Source of the DNA: Phycisphaerae bacterium
Lineage (GTDB): Bacteria > Planctomycetota > Phycisphaerae > UBA1845 > Fen-1342
Reading direction: 5' to 3'
Assembly: GCA_050115495.1 (NCBI GenBank)
Contig: JASFQK010000039.1
Coordinates: 1 to 64,000 of the forward strand
DNA length: 64,000 nucleotides
Position numbers and translations under genes: made by a program. This document shows positions 6,817 through 63,151 of this stretch, piece by piece; position 1 is the stretch's first letter; every line of letters starts with the position of its first letter. The notes below the pieces were generated by a model. It had not been told where the DNA came from, did not search any database, and was given only the letters and a program-made list of their open reading frames with translations.

Positions 6817-8925
6817 TTATTCAGCGCCGGGGAATCCGCCGGCGGGTTCTGCCGACGCTGGCGACGCGCTGCCACTCCGACGTCCGCTAACCACACCGAC
6901 CATCCGGCCCACCATGCTGCGCATGGTCTGCGCCTGGGCGGCGAGCTCTTCGGCGGCCGAGGCGGACTCCTCGGCTCCCGCGGCGTTCTGCTGCGTGACG
7001 CGATCGACCTGCGACACGGCCGTGTTGATTTCGTCGACGCCCTGGGCCTGCTCCTCCGAGGCCCGGGTGATGCCTTCGAGCAGGTCGGCGACGCCGGTGA
7101 TATCGGTGACGACGGTGCCGAGCACGCTGCCCACGTCGGCCGCGACGCGGGCGCCGTCGCGGGCGCGCTCGACGGAGTTCTCGATGAGGCCGGTGACGTC
7201 GCCCGAGGCCGATGCCGCGCGCTGGGCGAGGTTGCGCACCTCGTCGGCAACGACGGCGAAGCCCTTGCCGTGCTCACCGGCGCGGGCGGCCTCGACGGCA
7301 GCGTTGAGGGCGAGCAAGTTGGTCTGGAAGGCGATCTCCTCGATGACCTTGATGATGCGGCTGATCTGCCCGGAGGAATCGTTGATGGCGGCCATGGCTT
7401 CGTTCAGTTGCACGACCGTGTGGTCGCCGGTGTTAGCACCGGTGCGGGCCTTGGTGGCAAGCCCGCTAGCCTGGCGGGCGTGCTCGGCGTTGTTGCGGGT
7501 CATGGTGGCCATTTCCTCGAGGGCGTTGCTGGCCTTCTCGAGCGAGGAGGCCTGCTCACTCGCTCCTTCAGCCAGTTGCTGCGCGGCGGAAGCCACCTGG
7601 GAAGCAGCTTCGTTGACCTGGTCGGCGCCCTCGTTCAGGCCCTTGATGAGCCGGGTAATCGGGCGGGCCACGCCGCGAGCGACGAAGAGGGCCATAGCGA
7701 TGGCCAGCACCAGCAGCACCCCACCGGCGCCCGCACACCAGGTGAGAGCCGTGGCGGTGGCCGCGTCCTGCGTCTGCCTGCCGGCGGCGAGAGCTTCCGC
7801 CGTCTGCTTCTCCATCTGCGTGGCGGCCTCGAAGAACTCGTCTTCATAGGCACCGACGCCGATGACCCAGTCCCACGGCGCGAAGTAGGCGACCTTTACC
7901 ACCTTGTCGCGCGACACCGTATCTCCGGCGTTCTTCCAGGCGTAGCGGGCGTCGCCGATCCCGCCCTCCTTCAGCGCCAGGGCCGTGTCGCAGATTTCCT
8001 GAATGAAGAGATTGCCGTTGGCATCCTTCGCGCCGGAGATGTCCTCACCGTCCCGCGCGCCATCCTTGGAGATCACGTAGTAGCCGCGCGTATCGCCCCG
8101 GGCATTGAGCACGTAGACGTAGCCGCTCTTGCCCACCTTGATCGACATGATTGCCTCTCGCAGTGCGGCCAGGATCTGCTCGGGCACACCGACATACAGC
8201 GCCCCCACCCATTCGCCGTCACTGAGGATCGGCCTATACGCCGTGATGTACCACTGGTTCACAACGTACGCCCGTCCGCGGAACGTCTCCCCCCGCTGCA
8301 GGGCGGCGACGACAGGATTGGGCGTCCCGTCCGGATTGACCGCTGGGATGTACGTCCCGATGGCCCGGGTGTTGTCCGTCTTGGGCACGTTCGTGCAAAC
8401 GCGCAGAATGTCCCCCGCCGAGTTCATGCGCTGAAACACGGTGCACGTACCACCCACGAGGCGCTGCACGTCGTCCACGACCGGCGAGGGCGTGCTGATG
8501 TCGGTATTCGGCGTCAACCAGGTGTCGCCAAGACCCATCTTCGGCAGCGACACGTCCGCCGCTTCGTTCGTGTACTGGTTGACCGCCCGCCAATCGAGCG
8601 TCTCCTCAGCGAAGTGGATCTCGCCGGTCGAACTCAGCACGAGTTGGGCCACGTTCAGATCATGGTTCACCTTCTGCTGGAGCAGCTCGTGCTGGGCCTG
8701 ACACATGTCTCGCACGTTCTCGGCGACGTGCGTCAGGTCCGTCATGCCGGCGTCCACCAGCGCCTCGCGGGCCCCAGCACTGCCCTGCTGCAAGGCATGT
8801 TCGGTCTGCGAGGCGGTCTCACGGAAAGCGTTGTTCGTCTGCCACAGAAGAATGGCGGCGATGACTGCCGCCGGGACGATGGCCAGAACCACTTTCGACA
8901 GGAGGAGCTTGGTCTGCAATCCCAT
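6817..8925 (-). CDS. Methyl-accepting chemotaxis protein with Cache sensor domains
   Basis: Two TM segments; [37 protein letters not shown] signalling hairpin; WDWVIGVG Cache motif. Confidence 0.95.
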
Positions 8926-48367: not shown

Positions 48368-51300
48368 TCACGGTACCGGCGAGACAACCTCCTCGCCCTC
48401 GGACGATTCCGGCAACAGCGTGTACCGCTCCATCTGCGAGCCGTTGACGCACAGCACGGTCGCCCGCTCGCCCGGCGGAGCCGGCACGGCGTAGAGCAGG
48501 CTCACCTGGTCATCAAGCTTCCGGTCGGCGATGACCTGCCCGTCGTCGTCGATCCAGATCAGCCGGCCGCCGGTCTCAGTGCTCCTGAAGCTGCTCTCAT
48601 CCACTTGTTCACGGACGTACAACGCCAGCCCAACCACGTACTCAACGCGTCCATCGCCGTCGAAGTCGCCGCCCACGGCCTCAGCCTGGCCCTGAACACC
48701 TGGTCCCAGCGTCGGCTCGAGCTTCCATAGGAGTTCACCGCGCGGCGAGTAGAGACACAGCAACATCCGCATGCGGGACCCGTCGAAGGTGGTGTACCGA
48801 GCAGCCGTGCACAGCCAGCAGACCTCGCCATCGACCGGAACACCGCGCACGGCCTGCACATCCGCGCCTTCCAGTCCCGGCAGACGCAGTTTCTGCACCA
48901 CACCCGTACTGGGCTTCAGGATCGAGACGCCGCCCTGGTAGTCGGGGAAGATCAGCTCCACCTCACCGTCGCCGTCGACGTCCTGCTCGGACATGTTCCA
49001 GCGTGAGCCGGAGAACATCATCGACTCCTCCAGGTTCACGCGTGCGTTACCGCCGGGCTCGTCTGGCGCCGTAATAGCCATCCCCAGCCCCTCGTCCTCG
49101 TCAAAGGAGGCAGCCGTGATCGTCTCGCCGGCGGCCAGCTTGCCCACGCAGTCGGCCAGTGCGGTTCGCACATCCTCCGTCCACGTCGGGAACACCGCCT
49201 TTACCTGCCCCGCCGAATCCACGACGTAGACGAGCGGCAGACAGGTCACATGCCACTCCTCCGCGATCCCGTGCTCGGCGTCGCTGATTTGCGGGAACCG
49301 TACGCCGCAGCGCTCGACCGTTTGCCGCATGATCGCTTCGCCCGCAGCGCCGTTGCCGTTAACACCGACGAAGCACACGTTGGCCGCGCTGTCCGCCGCC
49401 AGGCGCTGCATCTCGCGGAGCAGCGGCTCCGCCTGTGGCATCCACGTGGCCCAGAACGCGACGACCACGACCTTCCCGTGCTCGGCCGCCAAGTCGAACC
49501 GCCCGCCGTCGAACGTCGTGCCGATCAATGCGGGTGCCCGTTGACCGAGCAGCTTGTCCGGCTGGGCAATCTCGTCACTACATGTCCAGTAATACGGATC
49601 GTACACACGCGTGCCGGGCGCGTTCGGAACGAACGTGTCGTCGGGGATCTCCGCATCGGTCTCCACGTCGCGCAGGGTGATCACGATCTCCGCCTTCTCC
49701 ACCGCCTCGGGGTCGCGCTCGTACGACTGGCGCAGCACCGCCCGATAGCCCTCCGTGTAGTCCAGCCGGAATTCCTCGAAGAGTTGGCGCTCGCCGTCGA
49801 TGAACGCCTCGAACGGCAGCATGCTGCCATGCTCGAGACGGTCCAGCCGGAAGCGCCCGCTGAGCAACCGCCCCGCACGGCCCTCGCGTTCGGCGGGCTG
49901 CACGCCAGTCACAACCACGATCGGCAGGTACTCGTCACCGTCCTCGCCGCCGGCCAGCACCGCCGCCAGCGGATGTCCGCCGCCGACGGGTTCTCTGGAC
50001 AGCGACCACGGCGCACCGCCGAGCGCCTCGGCCGTCGTCATGCTCGGGGCCGTGTACGACCAGCGGCCGCGACTCGGCCAGTACCACTTGACCTCCTCGC
50101 CATCGCTGTACGCGTGCGTGTAGTCCCACTTGACCGCGATCCGGCCATCCGCCGAGGCGAGCGTTCCGTCAATCCGCCCTTCCTCTAACGGTCGGCCCTT
50201 CTGTTCCAGCCGTGCCTCGTAGCAGTAGCTGTCGCGGTAGCTCTTCAACGCCCGGTAGTGGGCCAGCGTGGCGTCGAGAACGGCCCGCGCCTCGGGCGAT
50301 TCCTCCGGAAGTGGCTCCCCCGGCACCGCGCCCCCAGCTCTGAGCAAGCCGGCCAGGAAGCCTCCCAGCACGGATCCCCCACCGCCCGACGGACCTTCCA
50401 CTTCGTCGTCGTCACTAGCAGCCGCTACGGGACCGCTCCCGGAGACGTTGCGCACATGTCGCCCAACGGCGGCCGCCAGCGCCTCGCCGCGCAGGTCGCG
50501 CTCGATGACCTTTCCGTCCGGCCCGATCAGGAACTTCGCCGGAATGCCGCCGACGCCGTACAGATTGGCGATGGGACCTTTGTCCGCCTTCTCCGCCCAG
50601 ATCTGGATCCAGGGCAGCTCCCGGGCGCTCGCGAACTTCTGCGCCGTCTCTGCGTCCTTGTCGAAGCTGATCCCGACCACAACGAAGTTGTCGCCGCCGA
50701 ACTCCTCGTACAGCTTCTTCACCTTCGGCAACTCGGCGACGCAGGGCCCGCACCAGGTCGCCCAGAAATCGATGAACACCACCTTGCCGCGCAGCTCGGA
50801 GAGCTTGAACGGCTTGCCGTCCAGCGTCTTCGCCTCAAAGTCGGGAGCGACCACGCCCGCGTGAATCGACTGCACCTTCACCTTGGCGATGTCCCGCTCC
50901 ACCGTGCTCTGCCCGACGGGCAGAGTCATCTCCTGGGACCAGGAGATGTCCTTCGGCCCGGGGCCTCACCCCAAGGCTGTGCGTTTGGCGTGTCGTAACA
51001 GCTTCACCGTGTGCGTGCCCGGCGGCAGGCCGTGCAGCTCGTACCTTCCGTCGGCGTCGCTCAGTCCGCCGATGACCGTCCCGTCGTCCGTGTGGATCTG
51101 AACGTTGACCATGGCGAGCGGCTTGTCGTCAGCGTCCAGCACGCGGCCGGCGACCGTCAGACCCTCTTTCGGCTGGAGCAGAACTTCCGCCGTCTCGCCC
51201 ACCGTCGCGGACACCGCTCGTTCGAAGAGCACGGGCGCGTAGGGCAAATTGGCGCCGGTTCCCCAGACAATCACCTTGTAGCGCTGGCCGGCGGGGAGTG

Positions 51301-51934
51301 GCCCGATCGGCCTCAACCTGGCGCCCGGCTCGCCAGACAGCGACCGCGAGTAGAAGAGGAGGCGTTGGTCGGCGTCCTCGTCCGCGCCAACACTGGCCCC
51401 ATCTTCCCCCTCCCCGAGCGGGGCCGCCAGCATGACCGCCAGGTATGCCCGCATGCCTTTGGGTAGCTCGGGCAGCTCGATATCCAGGCAAGCCCCCTTC
51501 TCCAGCCGTAGTCGCAACGGCTCCTGCTGGAGGTCCGCCGGCTTGATGTTCGGCAGGGTCGCGAAGCCGTGCTCGGCGTCACCGGCGAGAATGAGCCAAT
51601 CATCCTCCAGGGCGGCGAGATTCCGCAGGACAAAATGCCCTGCTGGATCGGTCATGGCCCGGCAGCAGTAGCGTCCGTTCGCCTTGGCGAACATTCCGAA
51701 CAGGTACTCGTTGTCGGCGCACACGCGTGCCCCGACCTCGTCATCGTACTCCAGGTATCCCTTCGCCCGATGGACGAGGACGACGGGCATACCCGCCGCC
51801 GGCTGGCCACTGTCGGCGAACTCCACGACGCCTTCGAGCTGATTGATCCCCGGCTCGCCCCCCACTGCCAACCCCGCGGCCAGCACGGGCCATAGCGCAG
51901 CCACCATCCACGTCGAGACGCGCTTCGTACTCAA
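48368..51934 (-). CDS. Exported multidomain redoxin (carboxypeptidase-regulatory-like beta sandwiches, TlpA-type thioredoxin WCGPC, LolA/DUF2092-like region, degenerate thioredoxin, FG-GAP-like repeats); probable selenoprotein with in-frame TGA at 50966-50968
   Basis: ORFs 50966..52300 and 48368..50929 share a frame, separated by one TGA plus 12 sense codons; AGGAGGT RBS before TTG 51934 and signal peptide; hairpins follow the TGA. Confidence 0.75.
50907..50965 (-). promoter_or_regulatory. Putative bacterial SECIS element (two tandem hairpins)
   Basis: mRNA: UGA-GGCCCCGGGCCGAAGGA-CAUCUCCUG[GUCC]CAGGAGAUG-A-CUCUGCCC[GUC]GGGCAGAG; first loop starts with G, 26 nt after the UGA. Confidence 0.65.
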
Positions 51935-52445
51935 GCTGCACCTCCTGTTCGCGAAGATGTTACAGTAATGCTGACAAGTCCAACCCCATACCCGGTGGCA
52001 CCAGCACGCGAGACTTTGTCGATAGGGTTCCCGTCCCTGTGGAAACTGCTGTCCACCCACGTGTATGGTAGTGGTCGCCAATGGCCCCGTCCACCCGGCC
52101 GGCGCGACTCCGCCGAAACCCCACCGGACGTCGCGGGCCCCCGGCGCCCCCCGCCATGCGGCCCCCGGCGCCCCCCTGCGATTCGCGCGGAAACGACCAG
52201 GACCAGGCCTGGGCCACGTGCCGGTAGCAACTGCGTGCACGCGGACAGACCAGTCCGAAAGGAACGATCGAAGGGGTCCAAAGCCGCGCGCCGCGATCAA
52301 TCACGTGGACGCCAACGGACTAGTCCCGGAGGGACGGCTGAAGATAGCCCAGCAGGAACTGCTGGGACCCGCCGGCCGCCTCCGATCCCCAGTCCCGAAG
52401 GGACGACTGAACGCCGGGTGGCGCAACGAATCCTTCAGCCCACGC

Positions 52446-52889
52446 TCACTCCGCCGCCAGGAGCCGGATCTGCCCGGGGGCCTTCAGACACAATTGATAC
52501 GCTCGCTCCGGCGTGCGGTCGCGGTCCAGGTCGAACCGCACCTCGAACCCCATATCGCAGCCGTCTCGATCCTGCACGCCGGAGACGGGCACTTTCATCC
52601 CGTCGCTGCGCTGATACGCGCAAACCGACAGCACAATGCGTGCAGAGGCCGCCCATCGGGCAAGCTCCCGCAGCGCGTTCTGCTCCGCCTCCTTGTTCGG
52701 CGCGGTGGCCACGTGCGACAGCAGGTCCTCAAGCTCGCCGAGCCGGCGCATCCTCCGCCGCCAGATGACCTCCCGAATGATGAGGACCACACTCGCGGCG
52801 ATGAACAGCCACCAAACCAGCGCGGTGGCTAACCGAAACGCAAGGTGGAAGCTATCGCTGTCGCCGTTCCAGAACCCCAACAATCCCAT
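52446..52889 (-). CDS. Hypothetical membrane protein
   Basis: AAGGA RBS; N-terminal hydrophobic segment followed by RRRMRR. Confidence 0.55.
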   Translation of the reverse strand: MGLLGFWNGDSDSFHLAFRLATALVWWLFIAASVVLIIREVIWRRRMRRLGELEDLLSHVATAPNKEAEQNALRELARWAASARIVLSVCAYQRSDGMKVPVSGVQDRDGCDMGFEVRFDLDRDRTPERAYQLCLKAPGQIRLLAAE

Positions 52890-53100
52890 GCATCCAATCC
52901 TTTCCGGATGCGCCCCTCACTGACCCCGAGAAGCCACCCTGTCCCTCAGATCACTTCTGCCGCGTATCCACAACGGCCCCGTCCTCGCCGGGTTGCCGCG
53001 TCGAGACCTGCTTCTCGATCCGCCGGCCCGAACAATCATACGCGATCTCGACCTTCCGGTCGCGCTTTCGCCGGCGAGCCGGAAAGCTGCGTTCGGCGAA

Positions 53101-53760
53101 TCACTTCGCCGGCGCCCACGGGCCCGTAATGGTCACGGCTTCCCAGACCGGGCTATCCGGGTCGTTCCGCACGACCGAGAAAGGCTGGGGGTTAAACGTG
53201 AGCGTCGCACGCGCTCCGATTCCCCCTGTCTCCCCGGCATAGAGGAACACGAGTCTTGGTGGCCCACTCGGATCATCCGGGTACATGAGCGTATGGTGAG
53301 AACGGTTCTCCATAACGAGCGCTTCGTCGACCTGGTCACCCAGCTCGATGATGCGGCTGAACCGCGCGTTCGGTCGTTCCGTAAACGTCAGCTCAGGACG
53401 GCCATCCGCGTCGAGGTCGGTATACCACTCCTCGCGGCCCCACACGATCAAGAGGCATCTCTTGACATAGACAACCTCCCGGGCGTCGTTGAGCACACAA
53501 ATCATGCGCTCATCCGCGTCGTCCCGGACCGCCGCGATGTACGCGGTAACGTGCGTTCCGACACACGCCTTGATCGGGACAGACACATCCAACACGTCGT
53601 CTTGCACGACGAGCCGCGCCGACCTGATGAGTTCCAGGAACTGGGCGTGGTCGACGACATCCCGCGTGCGCCAGTATTGCCACACGCCCAGGCCAAGCGC
53701 AGTAACAACGACAAGACCGAGGAGGTGCCCCCAGCGTGTCTTGCGGATGCCGGATTCCAT
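53101..53760 (-). CDS. Hypothetical membrane-anchored protein
   Basis: AAGGGG RBS; N-terminal TM; DLDADGRPEL Ca-binding-like loop. Confidence 0.6.
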   Translation of the reverse strand: MESGIRKTRWGHLLGLVVVTALGLGVWQYWRTRDVVDHAQFLELIRSARLVVQDDVLDVSVPIKACVGTHVTAYIAAVRDDADERMICVLNDAREVVYVKRCLLIVWGREEWYTDLDADGRPELTFTERPNARFSRIIELGDQVDEALVMENRSHHTLMYPDDPSGPPRLVFLYAGETGGIGARATLTFNPQPFSVVRNDPDSPVWEAVTITGPWAPAK

Positions 53761-53974
53761 GATTTCCCCTTAGCGAAAGATGGTACAACCACTTGGCTCG
53801 TAGTCCATGCTCTCCGGAATAGGTTCTCCCGGAAGCTCCCCCCGGGCAACCCGTCGCACGCCGGCGGCGTCGGCGTACCGCCGGATCGGCGACCGATCGT
53901 CGTCATAACACTGGAACGTCCCCACCGCAGCCCCTATCTTTTTCCAAACTCCCACCTGCACCCGGAAACGACGA

Positions 53975-53995
53975 ATGCCCGCTCGTCACGGGCAT
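53975..53995 (-). terminator. Hairpin downstream of the tRNA-Gly fragment
   Basis: ATGCCCG/CGGGCAT stem ~8 nt past the tRNA 3' end, weak T tract. Confidence 0.5.
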
Positions 53996-54002
53996 GTTCG
54001 AG

Positions 54003-54044
54003 AGCAGGTGATGGGACTTGAACCCACGACATTCACGTTGGCAA
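54003..54044 (-). pseudogene. 3' half of tRNA-Gly(GCC); att-site remnant
   Basis: Minus strand TTGCCAA-CGTGA-ATGTC-GTGGG-TTCAAGT-CCCAT-CACCTGC-T: anticodon loop, T arm and acceptor 3' strand; no D arm or 5' strand upstream. Confidence 0.85.
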
Positions 54045-54572
54045 AGTCACCAAGAGGACCCGGCCGAGAAGCCCGAAGCCTCGCGACACCAGTAGTTTAG
54101 ACGATCTTCGCACCTATTGCAAGTCATTCCAAACGACCGCGGTTTTTAGCGGTAGAACGCGGTTTCGGGGGACCATTTTCGGTACATACCGGATTCGTAC
54201 CGGGCGTCTACCCGACCCGCCTCCGGACTCCGAAGACTACAGGAGCGGTAGCGCTCGACCGCCTCCGCGGCTCTCTGGTGATTGGGCCCGCCTCTACCCC
54301 CTGCCCGCGCTTGTCGCGTTCAACCACGGCCGACCCTGGACGTTCTGAGGCCGCTGGCGCGGCGGTGTGGACTCGCGGGTGTCAGGTTGGACCGGGGTTC
54401 GGGGGGCAGTGCCACGGGATGATGATGAGGGGCAGAACGCCCCGACACGAACGCTGCCAAGGCGTCCGGAGCTACTGACGGGCCCGGATCAGAGCATTCG
54501 TCTGCCGCTTGGTCCGCTTGCCGGCTTTCTGCGAGGGTCTACGCAAGGCAGCAGACGCAGCATTCGCGCTTG

Positions 54573-55421
54573 CTACTCTGTCCCCGGATAGGGCGAGACA
54601 GTGACCATGTTCTCGTCCGAGCTAACGACCTTCCCGATAACAAAGACCCCTGATTGACTGGCCCACTGGGCCCCCTTGGGCACGATGACCGAACATGTCA
54701 CGCCCGGGTGCTCCACGCTTTCAACGGCGACCTTCGCAACGGTGCGACCAGCGGTCTCTGTGATCGAAAGCACTGAGCCGTTGAAAGCCAGCGTTTCGCC
54801 CACCTTCTCGCCACCACTGAGAATCACTTCCAAAGCGTATTCCGTGAAGCAGTAATCGTAGGCCCCGTGGCCCTCCACGATAAGTGACGACCCCTGCCAT
54901 CGCCTCGCAGGCTGCGCCTCTACGGCTCCGGACAGCCGCTTGATCGTGCGGAGGTACTCTGAATGCCGCTCATGGAACTGCTTCACGAACTTCTTGTCAG
55001 CCTTCTCCGCCAGTTCTTCGGCGTGCTGTTCGCAGAAGTCGAGGTAGGCAACGTATGCCGCCAGATTGTCGCGGCGAGGAAGCACCCTCTTCTGCCCCTC
55101 GCACTGCCAGCACTCTTCACGAGTCCCGTTCCGCTTCTTGATCCAGCCCTTCCCATCGCAAAGCGCGCAGTCCACTTTCTTCTTGTCGATTTCTCTGTCA
55201 AACCGCCCGATCTCGCGAACGAGTGACAGCTTCTTCGGTCCCTCAGGTTTCTGCCTCGCGGGGGGCTTCACCGCCGGCGCCGTCGTTGGCGCGTGTTCCG
55301 GCGGTTCCTTGGGTTCCTGCGCATGGGCGGTCTTTACCCCGATCAGCCCAACGATGATGGTACTTGCTGCCAGCCACACGAAACGCTGTTCTGCCCGCCT
55401 TCGTGCTCTTGAGAATCCCAT
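54573..55421 (-). CDS. Exported/membrane-anchored cargo protein with DnaJ-type zinc-finger motifs
   Basis: AAGGAG RBS; signal/TM; CALCDGKG and CWQCEGQK; beta-rich C-terminus. Confidence 0.7.
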   Translation of the reverse strand: MGFSRARRRAEQRFVWLAASTIIVGLIGVKTAHAQEPKEPPEHAPTTAPAVKPPARQKPEGPKKLSLVREIGRFDREIDKKKVDCALCDGKGWIKKRNGTREECWQCEGQKRVLPRRDNLAAYVAYLDFCEQHAEELAEKADKKFVKQFHERHSEYLRTIKRLSGAVEAQPARRWQGSSLIVEGHGAYDYCFTEYALEVILSGGEKVGETLAFNGSVLSITETAGRTVAKVAVESVEHPGVTCSVIVPKGAQWASQSGVFVIGKVVSSDENMVTVSPYPGTE

Positions 55422-55563
55422 TGTGAAGCTCCTTTGCGGACCGTCGTGACGACCCTACTTATCCGCGAGATGCTGTAAACCGGCGTCTATCAGCGTGTAC
55501 TTCGCTCGCGGCTTTGCAACAGTAGCCATGCGTCCCCCAGCATAACAACACGCCGGCCACGGC

Positions 55564-55604
55564 GAAAGAAAACCCCGCCCCGGGGAGCTTCCGGGGCAGG
55601 GCGA
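55564..55604 (-). terminator. Rho-independent terminator closing the element core operon
   Basis: Minus strand CCCTGCCCCGG-AAGCTCC-CCGGGGCGGGG-TTTTCTTT. Confidence 0.75.
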
Positions 55605-55644
55605 GCATCCGGCGGAACTTGAGACCGGATGCCCAGCAACCGAT

Positions 55645-55962
55645 TCAGCGTTCCGGCCGCCAGCCCAGCGGGCAGTCGCCGGCCGGGCCGTGCCGACGAA
55701 GATCGGACAGGCACCGTGCATCGGCGGGGCTAAGGCGGCACTTCCGGGCTTGCCAGTGGTGGCACACTGCCTCGGCGACCGGGCAGGGTTCGGGGCCGGT
55801 GACCGGCGGCGTGACCGGCTGGGGCAGCGCGTCGGCCGTCACGCCGCGCGGACAGGTCTTCGGAACCTCGAAACCGCGGAGCAACTCGGGCTGCGTCCGG
55901 CACATGCGGCAGGCGATTCGCTGACGGCAGAACGACGTCCTCAACCACGGCTTGCATTTCAT
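55645..55962 (-). CDS. Small Cys-rich hypothetical protein
   Basis: ATGA overlap with the upstream gene; CRMC, TCP and DCPLGW motifs; ends before the terminator. Confidence 0.6.
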   Translation of the reverse strand: MKCKPWLRTSFCRQRIACRMCRTQPELLRGFEVPKTCPRGVTADALPQPVTPPVTGPEPCPVAEAVCHHWQARKCRLSPADARCLSDLRRHGPAGDCPLGWRPER

Positions 55963-56552
55963 GGGCCGGGCTCCTGGCTTATTTGGCCGCCGCCGTTGCA
56001 CATGTTCCGGTAAATGCCAGTGTACCCGGCGCATGAAATGATCTGGTTGTCATGCGGCCCACTGGCAGATAGGCACGGACCCTCCAGTTCGACAGCGGCG
56101 TGGAACGCGAACCAGTGGTATTGAGTCTCGACAATGCTGATGTCTAGCCCGCCCGACATGGCCTCGACGATGATGTAGGCGCTGTACGTGTTAGAGCTGA
56201 GCGGGTCGCCTTCGCAGTACCCATCGGTATAAGCCTCTCTCAGTATTGACTGTGACACTAACACAAACCACTTGCATGGGCTGCCAAGTCCCTGCGTCAG
56301 CACGTGCGTTCCGTCGAAGCCGGACAGCGTAAATCTATATCTATAACCAGGGGGAGAGTCCCACGGGCAGCACTCTCCGCATGTACCGTCCATTCCGCTT
56401 ACAAGAACTGTGCGATGTAGTGGGGTCACCCCAGAGCAATATTGGCACGGGTCGCCAGGTGCAACGCTGGTGTCTTTGCACAGCTTCGGCAGCCCGTTTT
56501 TGCATACCCTCGGGAGCCCGTTGCTACAGAGCCGTGGAAGTCCTTCGATCAT
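55959..56552 (-). CDS. Cys-rich hypothetical protein with triple N-terminal GLPxxC repeat
   Basis: ATGA overlaps on both sides; visibly lower GC than host genes. Confidence 0.65.
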   Translation of the reverse strand: MIEGLPRLCSNGLPRVCKNGLPKLCKDTSVAPGDPCQYCSGVTPLHRTVLVSGMDGTCGECCPWDSPPGYRYRFTLSGFDGTHVLTQGLGSPCKWFVLVSQSILREAYTDGYCEGDPLSSNTYSAYIIVEAMSGGLDISIVETQYHWFAFHAAVELEGPCLSASGPHDNQIISCAGYTGIYRNMCNGGGQISQEPGP

Positions 56553-57241
56553 CGCGCCCGTCCCTCGGCGGCTCGCACGGCCAGCATCGCCGCCTTATCG
56601 CGCGCGACCTTCGCGGCGAGGATGGAGCGTTGCACTTCCGCCTCGGCCTGCAGCTCCTCGCGACGCAGCCGACATTCCAGCTCGTCGTCGGCCGCGCGCC
56701 GGTCCAGGCGGTTGGCGACCTCGGCCGGCGTCTTGCCCGGCGGGCAGCATCCAATGCCAGCGTACCCGGGAACGAACGGAATGGGTCGGCCGAGATAGCC
56801 TTCCGGATGCACCTCGGTCGGTTCCGCCGCCGGCAGCGCGCGTGTGACACACTCGTCAAATTCGTCGTCGGTGAGGATTCGGTGTAGCTGACCGACGCGA
56901 TTGTGCTCGCACCACAACGAGAAATCGCGCCGCAGGCGTTCGGCGGAAACGCGCAAGGCGGCGTGAACGGCCACACGTTCGCTGACGAATCGCGCGAAGG
57001 TTTCCGCCCGGCCGTCCGCGGCGGCGACACGCCGCTGCGCCGCCGCCCGCTCAGCAGCCGCTTCCTGCCGACGCGTTACCTCGGACGCTTCCATCATCCT
57101 GAGCTGGATGCCGAGCGAACTTCCCCACACGAGCGCCAGCTTGCGCTCCGCCTCCACCACGCGCTTTTCGAGCGCGGCAAGACGTGAGGCGTCACTGCTG
57201 GCTTTCGAGGCTACACTTGTCTTCGAGGATGCACTAGCCAT
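56549..57241 (-). CDS. Hypothetical protein, coiled coil plus primase-C-terminal-like winged helix
   Basis: GGAGGG RBS; FARFVSERV..VSAERLRRDFSLWCEHN resembles the D5/P4-primase C-terminal domain (inference). Confidence 0.55.
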   Translation of the reverse strand: MASASSKTSVASKASSDASRLAALEKRVVEAERKLALVWGSSLGIQLRMMEASEVTRRQEAAAERAAAQRRVAAADGRAETFARFVSERVAVHAALRVSAERLRRDFSLWCEHNRVGQLHRILTDDEFDECVTRALPAAEPTEVHPEGYLGRPIPFVPGYAGIGCCPPGKTPAEVANRLDRRAADDELECRLRREELQAEAEVQRSILAAKVARDKAAMLAVRAAEGRAR

Positions 57242-57539
57242 TGCGTGCCCTCCGCGCGGCGTCTTGCTGCGCCGCGTACGTTTTCGCCCGTCGCTTGGCG
57301 TCTCGCACCGTGGCCGGCACCGCCTCGTCTTCGTCGCCGCCGTAGACGCGGTCCGCGAGCCGGGAGAGCTGGAGCCTGTCCGCGCTCGTGGCGGCGGCAA
57401 GGCTGGGCTCACGCCTCCGATGCGACAGCGAAACGACGTCGCCCACGCGCACGAGCCGATCTGTGTCGCCACCGACCTCCGAGAAGATGGGCGCGCCGCG
57501 CTCGTCCACACCGACCAACATGAACTCACCAGAACTCAT
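57234..57539 (-). CDS. Hypothetical protein
   Basis: AAGGA RBS; translationally coupled to both neighbours. Confidence 0.55.
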   Translation of the reverse strand: MSSGEFMLVGVDERGAPIFSEVGGDTDRLVRVGDVVSLSHRRREPSLAAATSADRLQLSRLADRVYGGDEDEAVPATVRDAKRRAKTYAAQQDAARRARNG

Positions 57540-57835
57540 AGCACACGTCCTTTCTTGCTGCGCCGCCTACGCGGCGTCGTCTTGCACTTGCCTTTCACGA
57601 CTACCTCAAGTCGTTCCATGCCGTCGGCGACCGACCGCGGGCCGGCCTCGCCGGTGAACGCATCTGTCCATTCCTCAACCGAGCACGACGAGAACGGGCC
57701 GCCGGGGCCGATGGTGGCCTTGGCCATTGCCGCGAGCTGCCCAACGACGGCTCGCCGCATATCCGCGCTTGCTTGCCGCCGACGAGCGGCCGCGCCGATC
57801 AACCGTTCGAGTCGAGCCCAACCTCGCCACGACAT
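57536..57835 (-). CDS. Hypothetical protein
   Basis: GGGAG RBS; ATGA overlap with the next gene. Confidence 0.5.
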   Translation of the reverse strand: MSWRGWARLERLIGAAARRRQASADMRRAVVGQLAAMAKATIGPGGPFSSCSVEEWTDAFTGEAGPRSVADGMERLEVVVKGKCKTTPRRRRSKKGRVL

Positions 57836-58164
57836 ATGCGACTCCCTTCCGACAGCTCGTCGGCCAGCGCTTCCAGGGCTTCGATTCGCTCGAAAACGTC
57901 CGCCTCGGTCGGTCGGCCGAGTGTGTAGCTCAACAACAGGCGGACTGCGTTCAAGTCACCGTTCTTAGCGTCCTTCACGAGCCGGCGGGCAATGGCTCGC
58001 ACGTCTGCCGGTTCAACGGCTCTCACAAGTTCTGCCCGCAACGTCGCAACTCGTCCGGCCAGCGGGTGCCCCGGCCCGCCGGCGTTGCCCTTCAGGAAAC
58101 GTCCGTTGGGGCCGCGCTCCGGCCCGCCGTTTCCACCGTTAGTTGACGGTCGCCGCTGTGCCAC
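57799..58164 (-). CDS. DUF5681-like / terminase-small-subunit-like protein
   Basis: GRFLKGNAGGPG..R then helical AKNGDLNAVRLLLSYTLGRP, typical of the GxFxxGxSGNPxGR family; GGAGG RBS. Confidence 0.6.
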   Translation of the reverse strand: MAQRRPSTNGGNGGPERGPNGRFLKGNAGGPGHPLAGRVATLRAELVRAVEPADVRAIARRLVKDAKNGDLNAVRLLLSYTLGRPTEADVFERIEALEALADELSEGSRICRGEVGLDSNG

Positions 58165-58180
58165 GCCTCCAGCCTCCACA

Positions 58181-58549
58181 TCAGCCCATCGGGCGGACGG
58201 CCACCGTGACGACGCAATCCTGATCGTCGTAGCCGTCCTTCGACGCCCGAATGGTCTCGGAGTAGTCGCCCGGGTCCAAATCACGCCCGTCAATCGTCAC
58301 GTCGAACAAGGTCCCGTCCTGGCACGTCGCGGGGATCGTCAGCCACGACGCACCTGCAAGCTTGGCAAGTGTCGCATCGCCCTCGAACGCCGGGCTTCCT
58401 GAGAGAGTGAGCGCCACCGTCTTCGTCTGGGCCTGCCCGGCGGGTCGGGAGCCGGCCTGATCCCGGACGGCCCGCGGCGTGAACGCACCGCCCGGGTGTC
58501 GGATCGTGAGGCTCAGGGCCAGCGGATCGAACGAGAGGACGTCTGCCAT
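58181..58549 (-). CDS. Small beta-rich (Ig/PEGA-like) hypothetical protein
   Basis: GGAGGT RBS; LDPGDYSETIRASKDGYDD pattern. Confidence 0.6.
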   Translation of the reverse strand: MADVLSFDPLALSLTIRHPGGAFTPRAVRDQAGSRPAGQAQTKTVALTLSGSPAFEGDATLAKLAGASWLTIPATCQDGTLFDVTIDGRDLDPGDYSETIRASKDGYDDQDCVVTVAVRPMG

Positions 58550-58813
58550 GTCGGCTACCTCCGTGTTAGGTTCGTGTTAGCGCCACCCGGCCGGCCGCAG
58601 TGTCCGGATAAAAGCCGCGTTCCGAGAATGTGAACGCTGGTCGCCCGCCGAAACCCGGTACGTACCGTCCCGGATGGGGCCCACAGCCGCCCCGCGCCCT
58701 GCCGCAACTCCAGCTTCCGCAACGCCTTGCGACGAGCGGCTGAACCGGTGACGTTCTCTCTGCTGAGGAGACTGTCACAACGCATCCTCGCGTACGTCCA
58801 TGACGACCCGCGT

Positions 58814-59500
58814 TCATGCCGGAAACTCCATTTGCCGCTGTCGCTGGTCGGGAACGTTGTACAGATTCACAACCGTGCCGGCTGCCAACCGCGAAGCGAC
58901 TCGGTCGTCATACAGGCCGGCGAGTCGGTCGAGGTCCAGATTGCTGGCGACGACCAGCGGGCGGCAGAATCGCCGGTCAATCGCTTCGGTCAGCACTTCC
59001 CGGGCGAATTCGCTGGGGTCGCCACGGACGCCAAGCTCGTCGAGTACGGCGAGAGTCGCGCGTTGCCAGCGCTCCCACACGTCTTCGGGATAGAGCCGTG
59101 TTTCGGCGTGGGAGCCTTCGTCCCACAGCTCGCCGCACTTCGCGCGGCGTACGGTTTCGGTCAGCGCGCCGAACGTGGTGTAGCGGGCTAGCCCTCGGCA
59201 ACGATCAGCCAGGTACAGGCTCGCGCAGGTCTTGCCCACTCCGGGGCCGCCGCACAGCACGAGCGGCCAGGGTCGCTTGCCGCTCACAACATCGCACATC
59301 GCGGTCTCGATTGGCCGTGGAATGCGTTCGCGCAGCCGGAGCGCTTCCAAACGATGCTGCACCCGGCCAGGGTGCGGCCAAGTTGTCATGCGATAGAAAC
59401 CGGGGTACGGGCCGACGGGCAGGTGTCCGCCGGGCTGCTGCCACTCCGTCGGGGCCGCGGGTGCGTAGCCTGCGCGTGTCATGAAATACCCTCCCTGCAC
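58814..59500 (-). CDS. DnaC/IstB-like AAA+ ATPase (helicase loader)
   Basis: Walker A GGPGVGKT, Walker B LAVLDELG, IDRR, ASNL, DRVASRL. Confidence 0.85.
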   Translation of the reverse strand: MQGGYFMTRAGYAPAAPTEWQQPGGHLPVGPYPGFYRMTTWPHPGRVQHRLEALRLRERIPRPIETAMCDVVSGKRPWPLVLCGGPGVGKTCASLYLADRCRGLARYTTFGALTETVRRAKCGELWDEGSHAETRLYPEDVWERWQRATLAVLDELGVRGDPSEFAREVLTEAIDRRFCRPLVVASNLDLDRLAGLYDDRVASRLAAGTVVNLYNVPDQRQRQMEFPA

Positions 59501-60240
59501 CGGTGCGCGTACTTGCCGGGCGCGGCCACCACGCGGGCGGGCGAACGTGGCTGCCCGTTGCCCCCGCCTTGCTTCGGCGGAAAAAGGCCCTGCCAGCCGG
59601 CGCCGATGCTCGTGCGAATGCTCTCAATTGCCGCCGGCTCGCCCATCCCTTCGAGCGCTGTGAGCTGGGCGGTTAGCGTGCGGGCCGTGCAGGTGAGCCG
59701 GCGTTCGTGCCGGTAGGCCAGCCATTCCGCCCACGCGACCCGGAATTCGGGGGTGTCCAGACTCAGGGGGATCGTCACCGACGCTGCTGCCGCCGCCGCC
59801 GGTTTGCGCTTGCGCGCCCTATTCTGGGTATCTGGAAGATTCTCTTCTCGTTCAGTCACACTGGTTGTGACGTGCTCGTCACACTGGTTGTGACGTAACA
59901 TCCCGCTGGTTGTGACGCCGCCAACCACTGGTTGTGACGTCCTACTGGTTGCGACGTCACACTCTGCGTGACGCAGAAGCCGATAGCGGTTCGGCCGCCG
60001 ATCCTCGCAACTGCCGCGGACCACGCTCACGAAACCGGCCGCCACGAGCCTCGCAATAGAGGCTGGCACGGTGTTCGGGTGGACATGGGCGAGGTGAGCC
60101 AGCGCGCGTACGCCAGGGTTGCCCTCGTGGCTCTCGAAGTCGCAGTGCGTCGCCAGGGCTGCATAGACGGCCAGGTCCACGGCCCGCACTTCGCCGTGTT
60201 CCATCAACGCCCGCGGCACCTTGCCAAAGAGGTAGGTCAC
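59479..60240 (-). CDS. Phage-type replication initiator with N-terminal HTH
   Basis: LAVYAAL..PGVRALA..IARLVAAGFV..NRYRL wHTH; C-terminal WAEWLAYR..SIGAGWQGLF; internal iterons; upstream of dnaC-like gene. Confidence 0.8.
   Translation of the reverse strand: MTYLFGKVPRALMEHGEVRAVDLAVYAALATHCDFESHEGNPGVRALAHLAHVHPNTVPASIARLVAAGFVSVVRGSCEDRRPNRYRLLRHAECDVATSRTSQPVVGGVTTSGMLRHNQCDEHVTTSVTEREENLPDTQNRARKRKPAAAAAASVTIPLSLDTPEFRVAWAEWLAYRHERRLTCTARTLTAQLTALEGMGEPAAIESIRTSIGAGWQGLFPPKQGGGNGQPRSPARVVAAPGKYAHRCREGIS
59855..59956. repeat. Iteron array, 5 x CTGGTTGTGACG (putative replication origin)
   Basis: Copies start at 59861, 59884, 59906, 59928 and 59945 (last has 1 mismatch). Confidence 0.85.
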
Positions 60241-60250
60241 GGCCGGTCCC

Positions 60251-60529
60251 TCAGCAGCCCTTCGCGACCAGTTCGCGCTCGGCCGCCTCGGCCCGACGGT
60301 CGGGGGCCGGCGGGACGGCGCCGGGCGAGTTCAGGCTTTGTATGAACCGCTGGCAGGCTTCCCGTGAGGTGTGCCGCACTCCGCCTAGGACGACGCTCTC
60401 CAAGCGCTGGCCGCGGACGCCGTGCAGCGTCCACCTCCAAATCGTACTGATGTGGGCGGGTTTCGCTGGATTGATGACCCGCGCCGCCTTGCGGAGCGGA
60501 ATGAGTTGCTCCACGGTCGTGTCGATCAT
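60251..60529 (-). CDS. DUF1580-type HTH protein (excisionase/AlpA-like)
   Basis: LIPLRKAA..HISTIWRWTLHGVRGQRLES..GG..TSREACQRF; AGGAG RBS. Confidence 0.8.
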   Translation of the reverse strand: MIDTTVEQLIPLRKAARVINPAKPAHISTIWRWTLHGVRGQRLESVVLGGVRHTSREACQRFIQSLNSPGAVPPAPDRRAEAAERELVAKGC

Positions 60530-60594
60530 GGTGAGGCTCCTGCAAAGTGTTACTCACTTCGCAAGTCTTCCTCACAAACGCGACCGTATCACTT

Positions 60595-60610
60595 CGTAAC
60601 GTGCGTTACG
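60595..60610. promoter_or_regulatory. Palindrome CGTAACG-TG-CGTTACG, putative operator upstream of the HTH-replication operon
   Basis: Perfect 7-bp arms; two nearby TCACTTCG direct repeats. Confidence 0.45.
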
Positions 60611-61538
60611 GTTTACGATCAGTCGTCCGGGGGCTCCACTGGCGAATGCGCTGCTCAACCCACTTGCGAGGGTAGTATTTTTCCCCGTTGTCCGGTGCGT
60701 GGAGCACGTCGGCGTCGTTCAGGACGCCCGCGCGGCGGTCGGCTTCCTCCCAGTTTTGCAGTGTGCTGCGCGGAGGTCGCTTCCCGCCCTTGCAGAACTC
60801 GTCGCCGTTGATGATCGTGTTCGCGCCGACGTGGGTCGAAGGTGGCGTCCAGGGGGGCGGCGCTACAGCGGTGAGGACGTCGGCTTTCCCCGGGGGTGGC
60901 CCCGCGAGCCGCTGGTCCCGGAGAATGCTGGCGCCGCGCGGAGTGAGCATGATCCTGATGCGCCGCGACCGGATGCGTTCCACCAAGTCAGACGGCTTGT
61001 CGCCGAGCTTGCAGAGCCCCACGCCCACGTATCCGTGCTGACGGCGCCCGACGCTGTTCGTGATCCGCGTCAGCCCCTTTGATACGCCGGGCAGGCCAAC
61101 GACGTGGGCCTCAAGCTCCGCTTCGTTCATGCGGTCGGCGCCGCGTATTCCCTCGGCTATGGCCCATTCGCGGTAGTCCCGCGCGACGGCCAGGGGGAGC
61201 GCCCCCAGCTCGAACGCCAGGGCCAGCCGTTCCGCTGCGTACCGGTCGAAGTGCGTGCCCTTTCCCGTCCGCGGTGCGCTCTCGCCCGAGACCGCTTCGC
61301 GCGTCCGCCCCTCAAGTTCGCGCTTGATGCCCCTGAGGTCGGCTTCGTCGCCGGGATTTCCGTTCCTGAAACAGATGATGCCCTGATGCTCGGGGTCCAT
61401 GAGCCAGCCGAGTACATCGGGATGCCGGAGCTTCTCGGGCAGTTCGGCGACGAACAGCGGATTACCCGCTTCCTCCAGATGCCGGAGAAGCTCCAAACAC
61501 ACTGGGGGCACGGCGTCGATATGAATGGCCTTGTTCAT
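60606..61538 (-). CDS. Hypothetical protein, possible C-terminal HTH regulator
   Basis: GAGGT RBS; PPRSTLQNWEE..YYPRKWV resembles a MerR/xis-like HTH; lies between integrase and DUF1580 gene. Confidence 0.6.
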   Translation of the reverse strand: MNKAIHIDAVPPVCLELLRHLEEAGNPLFVAELPEKLRHPDVLGWLMDPEHQGIICFRNGNPGDEADLRGIKRELEGRTREAVSGESAPRTGKGTHFDRYAAERLALAFELGALPLAVARDYREWAIAEGIRGADRMNEAELEAHVVGLPGVSKGLTRITNSVGRRQHGYVGVGLCKLGDKPSDLVERIRSRRIRIMLTPRGASILRDQRLAGPPPGKADVLTAVAPPPWTPPSTHVGANTIINGDEFCKGGKRPPRSTLQNWEEADRRAGVLNDADVLHAPDNGEKYYPRKWVEQRIRQWSPRTTDRKP

Positions 61539-61639
61539 CTTGGCGACCTCGCGCCCGGGCCGCACGGTGGGGTCGCACGTCCACCGCGCGGGCACCGGGC
61601 AGTTCGGCGGGGATCAACCGCCGAGTTCATGTTACCCGA

Positions 61640-62962
61640 TCACCCGATCTGGCGTGCAATCTGGACCGCCAGCCGCGAATCTCTCTCCGCGTACACCTGC
61701 GTCACTGCCGCGTTTGCGTGTCCCAGCGCGACCTGCGCGCCCTCCAGGCCGAATTCTCGCCGAACAGCGGTTGCAGCGGCATGACGAATCTGGTTCGGCG
61801 CGAACGTGTTCTCGCGCCGCCACGCCAGCACGTCTGGCCAGCGGTCGCCCAAGCGGGCCCGCCATTCGGTCGCCGACTCTCCCCTGAGGCGTTTCAGGTC
61901 GGCGGGCAACGGCCATACGGCGAGGCAGGCACGCGAAATGGCCCTGGCGTACGCCGTGACGGCGTACCGTTCACCCGGCGCCCGACGTCGTCGGCGCTTC
62001 CGGTGGGTGCCGGGCCGGTTGCCGCACGACAACGGCGTCGTCCGGGCCGCATGCCGGGCCTCCAGACGCTCCCGTTCCTCTTCGGCCGGCGAGAACAGGA
62101 ATCCGGGTCTCAGGAACGGCGTGATTGCGGCCTGCGCCAAAGGCCCCAGAGCGATTACCCGCCGGCGACCGTGGTGTGCCGTCTTGTGCTCACAAAGCGT
62201 CCACAACCACACTTCTCCGCTGCGGTCGATGTCCTCGCCACGAATCGCGCACGCCTCGCCGGGCCGGCAACCGCAGGCGCGTTGCAGTTCGACGAGCGCG
62301 CGTACCTGCCTCGACAGGTGCGGCTTAATCGCGTCCAGAACGTCATCCGCGACGGGCTCCACGTGCCGCGGCTCCGGCGCGCTGCTCTCGTGCATGCGGA
62401 GCCCCTCGACCGCGCTCAAACTGTGCCACACGGACTCCGGCACCAACTCTTCACGTGCGGCCCACCGAAAACATCGCTTCACGATCTGAATTTTCCCATT
62501 GATCGTCTGGCGGTTGTGCCCGAGGTCGATCATCCGCTGTCGGACGGTGAGCAATGCCCTCGCTCGGAAGCGGTCCGCGGGCTCTCTGGCGAATAGCTCG
62601 CGCACCGGGCGGAGAGCTTGCTTGATCCGGTCCAGCAAATCCGACAGGCGCCGGCGGTTCGGGTTGGCGTAGTATCGCTCGGCGTAATCGAGGTACTTCG
62701 CGAGCACCTCCGCGACGCTGACCGGCTCGACGGGCTGTTCGGGCAGGCGCCGACCGCCGGCCAACCAGCGCCCGATGATCTCGACGTATCGCTCACGACT
62801 CTCGGCCGAGCCGTGCTCGCCGAGATAGTGGTCCTTGCCGTTCAACGAGACGATCGCCCTTCCGCTGGCGCGGTGCAACCGGTATTTCGGGATGCGGACG
62901 CCGGGGGGAGCCTGGAAGATGGGGGGTTGCGGAACCGTGTTTCTTCGCTGTTTTCGGGGCAT
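61640..62962 (-). CDS. Tyrosine recombinase / integrase
   Basis: AGGAGGT RBS; arm domain PKYRLHRASGRAIV..DHYLG; catalytic GCRPGE, HKT, NQIRH, LGH, TQVY. Confidence 0.95.
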   Translation of the reverse strand: MPRKQRRNTVPQPPIFQAPPGVRIPKYRLHRASGRAIVSLNGKDHYLGEHGSAESRERYVEIIGRWLAGGRRLPEQPVEPVSVAEVLAKYLDYAERYYANPNRRRLSDLLDRIKQALRPVRELFAREPADRFRARALLTVRQRMIDLGHNRQTINGKIQIVKRCFRWAAREELVPESVWHSLSAVEGLRMHESSAPEPRHVEPVADDVLDAIKPHLSRQVRALVELQRACGCRPGEACAIRGEDIDRSGEVWLWTLCEHKTAHHGRRRVIALGPLAQAAITPFLRPGFLFSPAEEERERLEARHAARTTPLSCGNRPGTHRKRRRRRAPGERYAVTAYARAISRACLAVWPLPADLKRLRGESATEWRARLGDRWPDVLAWRRENTFAPNQIRHAAATAVRREFGLEGAQVALGHANAAVTQVYAERDSRLAVQIARQIG

Positions 62963-63077
62963 TGTGCGACCTCCTGAGGCGATGCCCGGTATGTACCGGG
63001 TTTTCGCTGACTTCAGGCCGCACCGTGCTCCGTCGCACGGGTACGCTAACTCAAGCGTTCGGCGAGACTTACAACAC

Positions 63078-63151
63078 TGGGCGTTACAGGACTCGAACCT
63101 GTGACCTCATCCGTGTGAAGGATGCGCTCTAGCCGACTGAGCTAAACGCCC
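63078..63151 (-). tRNA. tRNA-Val(CAC)
   Basis: GGGCGTTTAGCTCAGTCGGCTAGAGCGCATCCTTCACACGGATGAGGTCACAGGTTCGAGTCCTGTAACGCCCA folds into a full cloverleaf; CCA not encoded. Confidence 0.95.

Follow-up and report, generated by a model that had tools for sequence, protein, structure and literature searches.

Analysis of a 64,000-nt stretch of DNA from a Phycisphaerae bacterium (assembly GCA_050115495.1, contig JASFQK010000039.1, positions 1-64,000; hereafter the window) identified a gene on the minus strand that contains an in-frame UGA, codon 323, and sequence comparison indicates that this codon is very probably read as selenocysteine (Sec). The gene represents an uncatalogued selenoprotein family that we regard as real, with Sec in a new structural setting, and the Sec loop and the redoxin domain fused to it almost certainly form one exported protein and not two genes. 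A mechanism is proposed in which the Sec loop would act as a nucleophile that is recycled by the fused CxxC motif; we give this mechanism as a whole a probability of about 0.5.

The two open reading frames (ORFs) at this locus, which the original prediction had joined, proved to be a single frame, and the sequence checks suggested with that prediction all spoke for it. From 51934 to 48368 on the minus strand it comprises 1188 codons and a stop, and the sole internal stop is TGA codon 323 (50966-50968). The translated context reads ...LLRHAKRTALG*GPGPKDISWSQEM..., with RTALG*GPGPKD around the codon. Counting from the TTG at 51934 confirmed the codon number by translation, and the well-spaced ribosome-binding site claimed for the upstream part was found as AGGAGG, 6 nt before this TTG. 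The signal peptide claimed for the same part is probable as judged by eye, and the N-termini of the homologues are similar; some homologues (L135, L136 and P0141) have lipobox-like N-termini. The ATG at 51907 is the start chosen in a truncated database entry (P0171). Sequencing error had been named as a possible origin of the TGA. At the contig level, a contig in run X1 (depth 20.9) is identical across 50300-51934, X1 being a possible source of the sequence itself, and a 292-nt contig of a second study (X3) covers the TGA codon, with a single difference elsewhere. Because the contigs of X1 and X3 agree over the codon, the TGA is not an assembly error.

Judged from its homologues, the TGA is conserved far beyond chance, since it stands in the same column of a paralog that is 46% identical over aa 27-500 (source genome G000, contig C21) and in 42 of 45 homologous segments. 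Twelve matches among 41 related genomes covered the site, and each had one TGA, in that column; 2 other matches spanned the redoxin only. A domain profile applied across the order matched 44 times, in 37 of the 279 genomes, and 42 of these matches have the TGA while the other 2 lack it; in a class sample it gave matches in 9 of 401 genomes, and a phylum sample of 401 yielded 1 additional genome. The order and phylum matches were deduplicated to 45 distinct segments, 42 with TGA in a G-x-G context and 3 with TGC in the same column (G599, G601 and G618), the pattern of TGA and Cys that had been expected of a Sec codon. A fourth Cys homologue was P0152 (MBL8858998.1). Trp, Arg or Gly at the site, which had been named as grounds for rejecting the prediction, occurred in none of the 45 distinct segments, and neither these residues nor TAA or TAG were found at the Sec column among the homologous segments or the metagenome members. 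The metagenome members came from a pattern that allowed any TGN codon and gave 21 matches, of which 4 were due to chance and 17 were family members, all with TGA and 11 not found before. The TGA was conserved at identities as low as ~30%, and the source names of the close homologues were Phycisphaerae or Planctomycetota.

In total, these searches gave 53 distinct TGA segments and 4 Cys forms; the queries were mostly TGA members, 8-17 candidates were scored per genome, and divergent Cys forms may be under-counted. A Cys-form query over 201 genomes of the phylum returned only G618, which had already been found. Unbiased counts at the site are those of the order-wide profile (44 matches) and of the 45-segment set. 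A separate pattern-derived set of 42 sequences omits a decayed copy in G571 and the second copies in G544 and G547 that are cut by contig ends, and the protein alignments omit L021 (G019), in which the N-terminal part is missing from the frame. A scan of contigs gave 78 loci dominated by generic redoxins; of the 11 inspected, only L023 and L024 were family members, and L025, L026, L017 and L018 were rejected, having the family's domain types but no Sec loop. The decayed copy, L144 (G571:C110), has extra TAG stops and a broken frame and still keeps the G-TGA-G site. In genus g57 (L145, L138 and L139) two tandem paralogs were found, both with TGA and with synteny confined to the genus, next to a gene that is presumably NqrA-like.

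The Sec machinery that the prediction called for is complete in the source genome. A profile search found selA, selB and selD, each above the curated cut-off, and a tRNA-Sec with anticodon tca is present; selD itself has an in-frame TGA. Among the 37 other genomes carrying the family, selA was found in 36, tRNA-Sec in 34 and at least one of the two in all 37, and across the order selA was found in 236 of 279 genomes. In the order's family f6, selA occurs in just 12 of 35 genomes and the selenoprotein gene in 0 of 35. Genome-wide reassignment of TGA is excluded in the source genome: stops after long coding-like frames number 1132 TGA, 949 TAG and 386 TAA, and because TGA is the commonest stop, codes 4 and 25 are inapplicable. 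A scan of this genome for coding-like sequence across stops gave 119 TGA, 165 TAG and 50 TAA, was unspecific and missed SelD, and an ASPIC-UnbV gene showed no stop inside its domain match. Another in-frame TGA with a coding-like context, YGPGCG*TMH, at G000:C24:38902 on the minus strand, is a further selenoprotein candidate.

A hairpin of the consensus type lies where the prediction had placed one. It has the sequence CAUCUCCUG-GUCC-CAGGAGAUG (50948-50927), forms 9 bp, begins 26 nt past the UGA and folds at -13.5 kcal/mol. The consensus for bacterial selenocysteine insertion sequence (bSECIS) elements in PMC13188914 (Fig. 2 legend) comprises a loop of 3-9 nt, a stem of 4-16 bp, a spacing of 16-37 nt, a G in the first two loop positions and a minimum free energy of -7.5 or lower, and the window hairpin lies within all of these bounds. 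The downstream ATG is, as had been stated, within the stem, where its bases (50929-50927) end the 3' arm. The G that was said to open the apical loop is present in the window hairpin but is not universal, a leading G being present in 29 of the 39 TGA members analysed. The spacing is 23-26 nt in all 39. An in-frame ATG no more than 36 codons downstream was seen in 12 of the 39, at five positions, and by this comparison there is no conserved restart after the TGA.

Resampling of synonymous codons in the 39 TGA members, with each encoded protein unchanged, gave for codons +6 to +14 a mean folding Z of -2.13 (37/39 below -1; 26/39 at p<=0.05), and three control windows gave Z values of +0.40 to +0.63. 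In the stem, where nt 22-28 pair with nt 35-41 as counted from the UGA, 84% of positions were paired, with 21 compensatory cells (0/500 shuffles), and two of five covariation measures were not above shuffles. These sequence statistics indicate that the hairpin is conserved beyond protein-coding demand. RNAalifold on 14 sequences recovered the hairpin with a negligible covariation term (-0.12). The three Cys genes gave Z values of +2.0, -1.0 and -1.6: one has lost the hairpin, and the other two show it in weak or residual form. Of these, L135 (G601), which encodes Cys, still forms a stem like that of a SECIS with unchanged spacing (Z -1.6), which may be left over from a switch from Sec to Cys; its congener L136 has lost the stem. 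Close relatives also showed another hairpin, at codons +15 to +20, which was discarded as unsupported family-wide (window +16 to +24, mean Z +0.63), and Rfam gave no match at the gathering score around the TGA codon.

The features of the locus, all on the minus strand, are as follows.

51941..51946, minus strand: ribosome-binding site AGGAGG, from the sequence
48368..51934, minus strand: whole read-through gene, 1188 aa with a single internal TGA, from translation
51860..51934, minus strand: probable cleavable signal peptide, ~aa 1-25, by eye
51494..51853, minus strand: beta-sandwich domain 1, ~aa 28-147, transthyretin/CnaB-like, from model strands and a structural match
51167..51493, minus strand: beta-sandwich domain 2, ~aa 148-256, with a conserved GPLP, from model strands 121-225
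50870..51160, minus strand: beta-sandwich domain 3, aa 259-355, CarboxypepD_reg / transthyretin-like, bearing the Sec loop, from PF13620 and the model
50966..50968, minus strand: in-frame TGA, codon 323, predicted Sec, from translation and conservation among homologues
50927..50948, minus strand: predicted bacterial SECIS hairpin with a stem of 9 bp and a GUCC loop, 26 nt past the UGA
50453..50857, minus strand: TlpA/ResA-like redoxin domain, aa 360-494, with intact WCGPC, from PF00578 and PF08534
50752-50741, minus strand: Cys395 and Cys398 of the redoxin WCGPC, from the sequence
49604..50311, minus strand: LolA/DUF2092-like domain, ~aa 542-777, long form only, from Atlas look-alikes
49172..49552, minus strand: second redoxin domain, degenerate, FWATWMPQAE without CxxC, from PF00578
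48371..48967, minus strand: C-terminal region with possible FG-GAP-like repeats, a weak assignment from PF13517 below its cut-off (E 0.0003-0.002)

In the core family a signal peptide is followed by three beta-sandwiches and then by a TlpA/ResA domain with CxxC. An AlphaFold2 model of aa 28-494, built from 41 sequences, gave three beta-sandwich domains and a redoxin at a predicted local distance difference test score (pLDDT) of 89.9 and a predicted template modelling score (pTM) of 0.82. Domain 1 (model strands 5-118) has a conserved hydrophobic F-x-x-x-N-G insertion, and its best match was 5fgs_A (Z 8.9, root-mean-square deviation (rmsd) 3.8, 103 residues aligned); extra copies of this N-terminal domain occur in some members. 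Domain 3 (model residues 232-328) matched the transthyretin-like domain of carboxypeptidase D, 5aq0_B, with a Z of 7.8, middling for a common fold, and an rmsd of 1.8 over 79/82 residues, and PF13620 covers aa 260-312 with 52-58 bits (cut-off 32.3). In the model two strands of this domain are joined by a loop of 12 residues that contains the Sec codon, and the alignment with 5aq0_B spans both sides of the codon, which agrees with the earlier claim that the TGA interrupts a CarboxypepD_reg-like sandwich ahead of its last strands. A product of the upstream part only would be predicted to miss those strands, because the codon lies inside one modelled domain. The loop reads R314-x3-R318-x3-G-U-G-P-G-P-x-D, in which three residues do not vary, namely Arg314, Gly324 and U323 (as Sec or Cys), and Arg318, Gly322, Gly326 and Pro327 are near-invariant. 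No redox-active beta-sandwich, such as nDsbD, was among the Foldseek and VIA-align matches listed.

The redoxin domain scored above the cut-offs of PF00578, PF08534 and PF13905 and below that of NF002854 (ResA), and Foldseek returned ResA/TlpA matches (template modelling score of the target 0.82-0.88 to ResA-type chains). WCGPC occupies residues 394-398, and Cys395 stands 72 residues past the TGA, so the Sec is placed outside the thioredoxin domains at the approximate distance that had been given. An intact CxxC was found 71-73 residues past the site in 42/42 sequences, with no other Cys common to all. The protein ends 172-229 residues past the site in 36/42, and a long C-terminal extension is present in 5/42, the window gene included. 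The frame of the ~1188-aa protein was therefore right, but its length is that of a minority form, the conserved unit ending soon after the first redoxin. Within the extension, the LolA/DUF2092-like region is a lead only, with Atlas look-alikes at 0.92-0.96 that include DUF2092 and LolA clusters and with no Pfam match, and the second redoxin is Cys-free in four of the five long forms and has a single Cys in one. P0076 (778 aa) is a tandem duplication whose first copy has neither the Sec/Cys loop nor CxxC and whose second copy ends at the Sec site.

In the proposed mechanism, one gene would encode an exported selenoenzyme, periplasmic or attached to the envelope, with UGA 323 decoded by SelB and tRNA-Sec via the downstream hairpin. 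On the structure model, Sec would stand alone on a Gly/Pro-rich hairpin loop inserted in the third transthyretin-like domain, near two conserved Arg residues. It would most likely act as a reactive nucleophile on an oxidised envelope substrate, which may be a peroxide, a disulfide or a persulfide. The oxidised Sec would then be reduced by the CxxC of the following TlpA/ResA domain, electrons presumably flowing in this direction, and that domain would be recharged from the cytoplasm by DsbD/CcdA; two genes with DsbD-type membrane domains (DsbD_TM) are present in the source genome. A nucleophile and a relay are suggested by the lone Sec without a resolving Cys, the fixed distance to the CxxC and the export signal. 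Sequence shows the codon and the Cys that replaces it in some homologues, and likewise the hairpin, the Sec machinery, the fixed spacing and the intact CxxC; the position of the loop is a prediction of the model. In all four Cys forms CxPC is changed to CGMC or CRTC, and these forms make up one branch (support 97) of a quick tree with a midpoint root only; together with the joint loss in P0076, the change of CxPC gives a thin hint that Sec or Cys is coupled to the CxxC. As a tentative wider account, a transthyretin-like sandwich, a fold regarded as scaffolding without catalytic function, may have gained a Sec active site on an inserted loop. Together with the TlpA domain to which it is fused, it would make up a selenoreductase of the envelope that is complete in itself (Sec to CxxC to DsbD). 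On this view most members would encode Sec and the Cys forms would be a single derived branch, for which reason Cys-seeded searches would have missed the family.

Several points weigh against the Sec decoding or the relay. The change of CxxC with Cys is seen on one tree branch only, and the joint loss of the Sec/Cys loop and CxxC in one protein only (P0076). The pattern behind the 42-sequence set accepted only sequences with the redoxin's first Cys and, at the site, either a stop or Cys, so that the set cannot count exceptions; the AlphaFold2 model was built with Cys substituted for Sec. Ten of the 39 hairpins have no G in the first two loop positions of the single best fold, and the covariation figures are inflated by the relatedness of the sequences. 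Co-occurrence with selA is weak evidence for Sec and adds little, because the background across the order is already 236/279 genomes. The gene neighbourhood, compared over 45 loci, showed only within-genus synteny and gave no pointer to a substrate.

Two alternatives keep the Sec and assign it another role. It could bind a metal or metalloid (Cu, Hg or As), haem or a sulfur species as a soft ligand, with the TlpA domain keeping it reduced or helping to load and unload it. TlpA serves the copper chaperone ScoI in this way. A ligand role would suit a Sec that stands by itself on an exposed Gly/Pro loop in which Arg314 and Arg318 are conserved, the TlpA-ScoI complex (4txo) is among the Foldseek matches of the redoxin, and many selenoproteins are predicted metal binders according to PMC13188914. 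However, no second conserved Cys, His or Met lies near the site and metal-handling neighbours do not recur, and we consider this role possible but rather unlikely. It is also unlikely that the Sec loop works independently of its own CxxC, bonding another protein or subunit (an envelope cross-link, an oligomer or partner docking) while the redoxin serves substrates of its own, for example apocytochromes. The beta-domains do resemble stalk domains of pilins and surface proteins, and the redoxin is of the ordinary ResA/TlpA type that normally works alone. Independence fits poorly with the fixed CxxC spacing, the compact four-domain model and the loss of both sites together in one degenerate copy.

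All readings without Sec are jointly very unlikely. That public gene callers end the protein at the UGA, and that the window gene has an in-frame ATG 13 codons downstream, would suit a UGA that truly ends the first of two neighbouring genes, or one that is leaky, with Trp or Cys inserted and with short and long products made independently of selenium. We hold this to be highly improbable, as the upstream product would, on the model, be without the last strands of its domain, the site is never TAA, TAG or Trp while Cys homologues exist, no restart is conserved and TGA is a normal stop in the source genome. A pseudogene arising by nonsense mutation, or a sequencing error, has next to no probability and is already refuted by conservation in the sequences compared: although one relative, G571, has a decayed copy with extra TAG codons, the same TGA recurs in 42 segments down to ~30% identity and in the paralog, and an independent study's contig has the same letters.

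The claim that gene callers cut the gene was borne out, as 33/33 family entries inspected end right before the codon. In a search of representative proteins, 28 of the best 150 matches were family members, all ending one residue ahead of the codon, and the other 122 were long repeat proteins that matched a generic domain. In a second protein search 5/5 matches ended before the codon, one of them being the window gene. The halves are named 'carboxypeptidase regulatory-like domain-containing protein' in GenBank (MFH1748777.1, NLG42756.1 and HUU99061.1). NCBIfam release 20.0 gave no model above its cut-off among the best 25 of 26 families, all matches being to redoxin parts; the best seleno-model, NF041054, scored 54-80 bits (maximum 80.1; cut-off 300). 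The family is not listed in the 119-family selenoprotein catalogue of PMC13188914 (Table 1). The main text of the BSepDB paper (PMC13326102) contains neither 'carboxypeptidase' nor 'Planctomyc', and its Table S2 and web database may bear on novelty; the main text of the deep-Sep paper (PMC12013277) likewise contains neither term. Full-text literature searches showed no description of the family among the papers listed, a scope that largely excludes subscription journals.

Other observations concern the surrounding DNA. Window positions 52400-63151, directly upstream of the selenoprotein gene, contain mostly unannotated ORFs with a lower GC content at third codon positions, with an integrase gene (61643-62962, PF00589) at the end, and are probably an integrated element; a tRNA-Val(cac) at 63078-63151 adjoins this phage-integrase gene. 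ARAGORN reported a tRNA-Val with anticodon aac, unusual in bacteria, at window positions 7215-7291 on the plus strand; the tRNA falls inside a long ORF and is possibly spurious. The paralog in the source genome, L022 (4536-12000, G000:C21), is the last in a same-strand run of genes for apparently secreted proteins, whose upstream regions carry a common repeated sequence; one neighbour has an NHL repeat.

The gene shares with bacterial selenoprotein genes that have a SECIS within the ORF the in-frame UGA, the hairpin, its leading G, SelA/SelB/SelC/SelD and the Sec/Cys pairs. It differs from bacterial selenoprotein families generally in that the Sec forms outnumber the Cys forms, 53 to 4, whereas Cys homologues are usually far more abundant than Sec forms and bacterial Sec-to-Cys changes are rare, according to PMC13188914. 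Cys/Sec-pair searches have little starting material here, because Cys homologues are scarce, and the filing of the N-terminal halves as carboxypeptidase regulatory-like proteins marks a blind spot. With selA in 236/279 genomes, this one Phycisphaerae order is an unexplored source of selenoproteins.

With the TlpA/ResA/CcmG reductases (NF002854, NF047696; 1su9, 1jfu) the protein shares the redoxin fold, FWATWCxPC, an export signal and the DsbD/CcdA genes, but its redoxin is fused behind three beta-sandwiches, one of them with Sec, and falls below the NCBIfam cut-offs. UGC-TlpA (NF041054, WAxxUGC), the redoxin UxxC, Prx-like UxxC/UxxU and VPGUxxT (NF041383) families likewise combine Sec and a redoxin in one chain. 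In the thioredoxin-fold selenoproteins Sec replaces an active-site Cys, whereas here the CxxC is whole and Sec lies 72 residues upstream, in another fold. Because Sec is not in the active-site motif that defines them (CxxC intact in 42/42), the family stands outside the thioredoxin-fold selenoprotein families, and it adds a selenoprotein family with Sec outside a thioredoxin or metal-cofactor motif. CarboxypepD_reg / transthyretin-like domains (PF13620; 5aq0, 1qmu) have the profile and fold of domain 3, but domain 3 has the inserted G-U-G-P-G-P loop. To our knowledge, such domains serve as stalk or accessory modules and not as redox sites; Sec would here occur in a very common domain of the cell envelope that is not thought to be redox-active. 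The natural Cys forms (~465 aa, e.g. MBL8858998.1) could be expressed without recoding, which makes the proposed relay directly testable. In the DsbD N-terminal Ig-like domain and in the Prx-Grx and MsrAB-thioredoxin (PilB) fusions, a redox centre outside the thioredoxin fold is served by the CxxC of a thioredoxin fold, through exchange or recycling. These are analogous in the way they work only, with no sequence or fold match found, and differ from the protein in the window, in which the centre would be a single Sec without a resolving Cys of its own.

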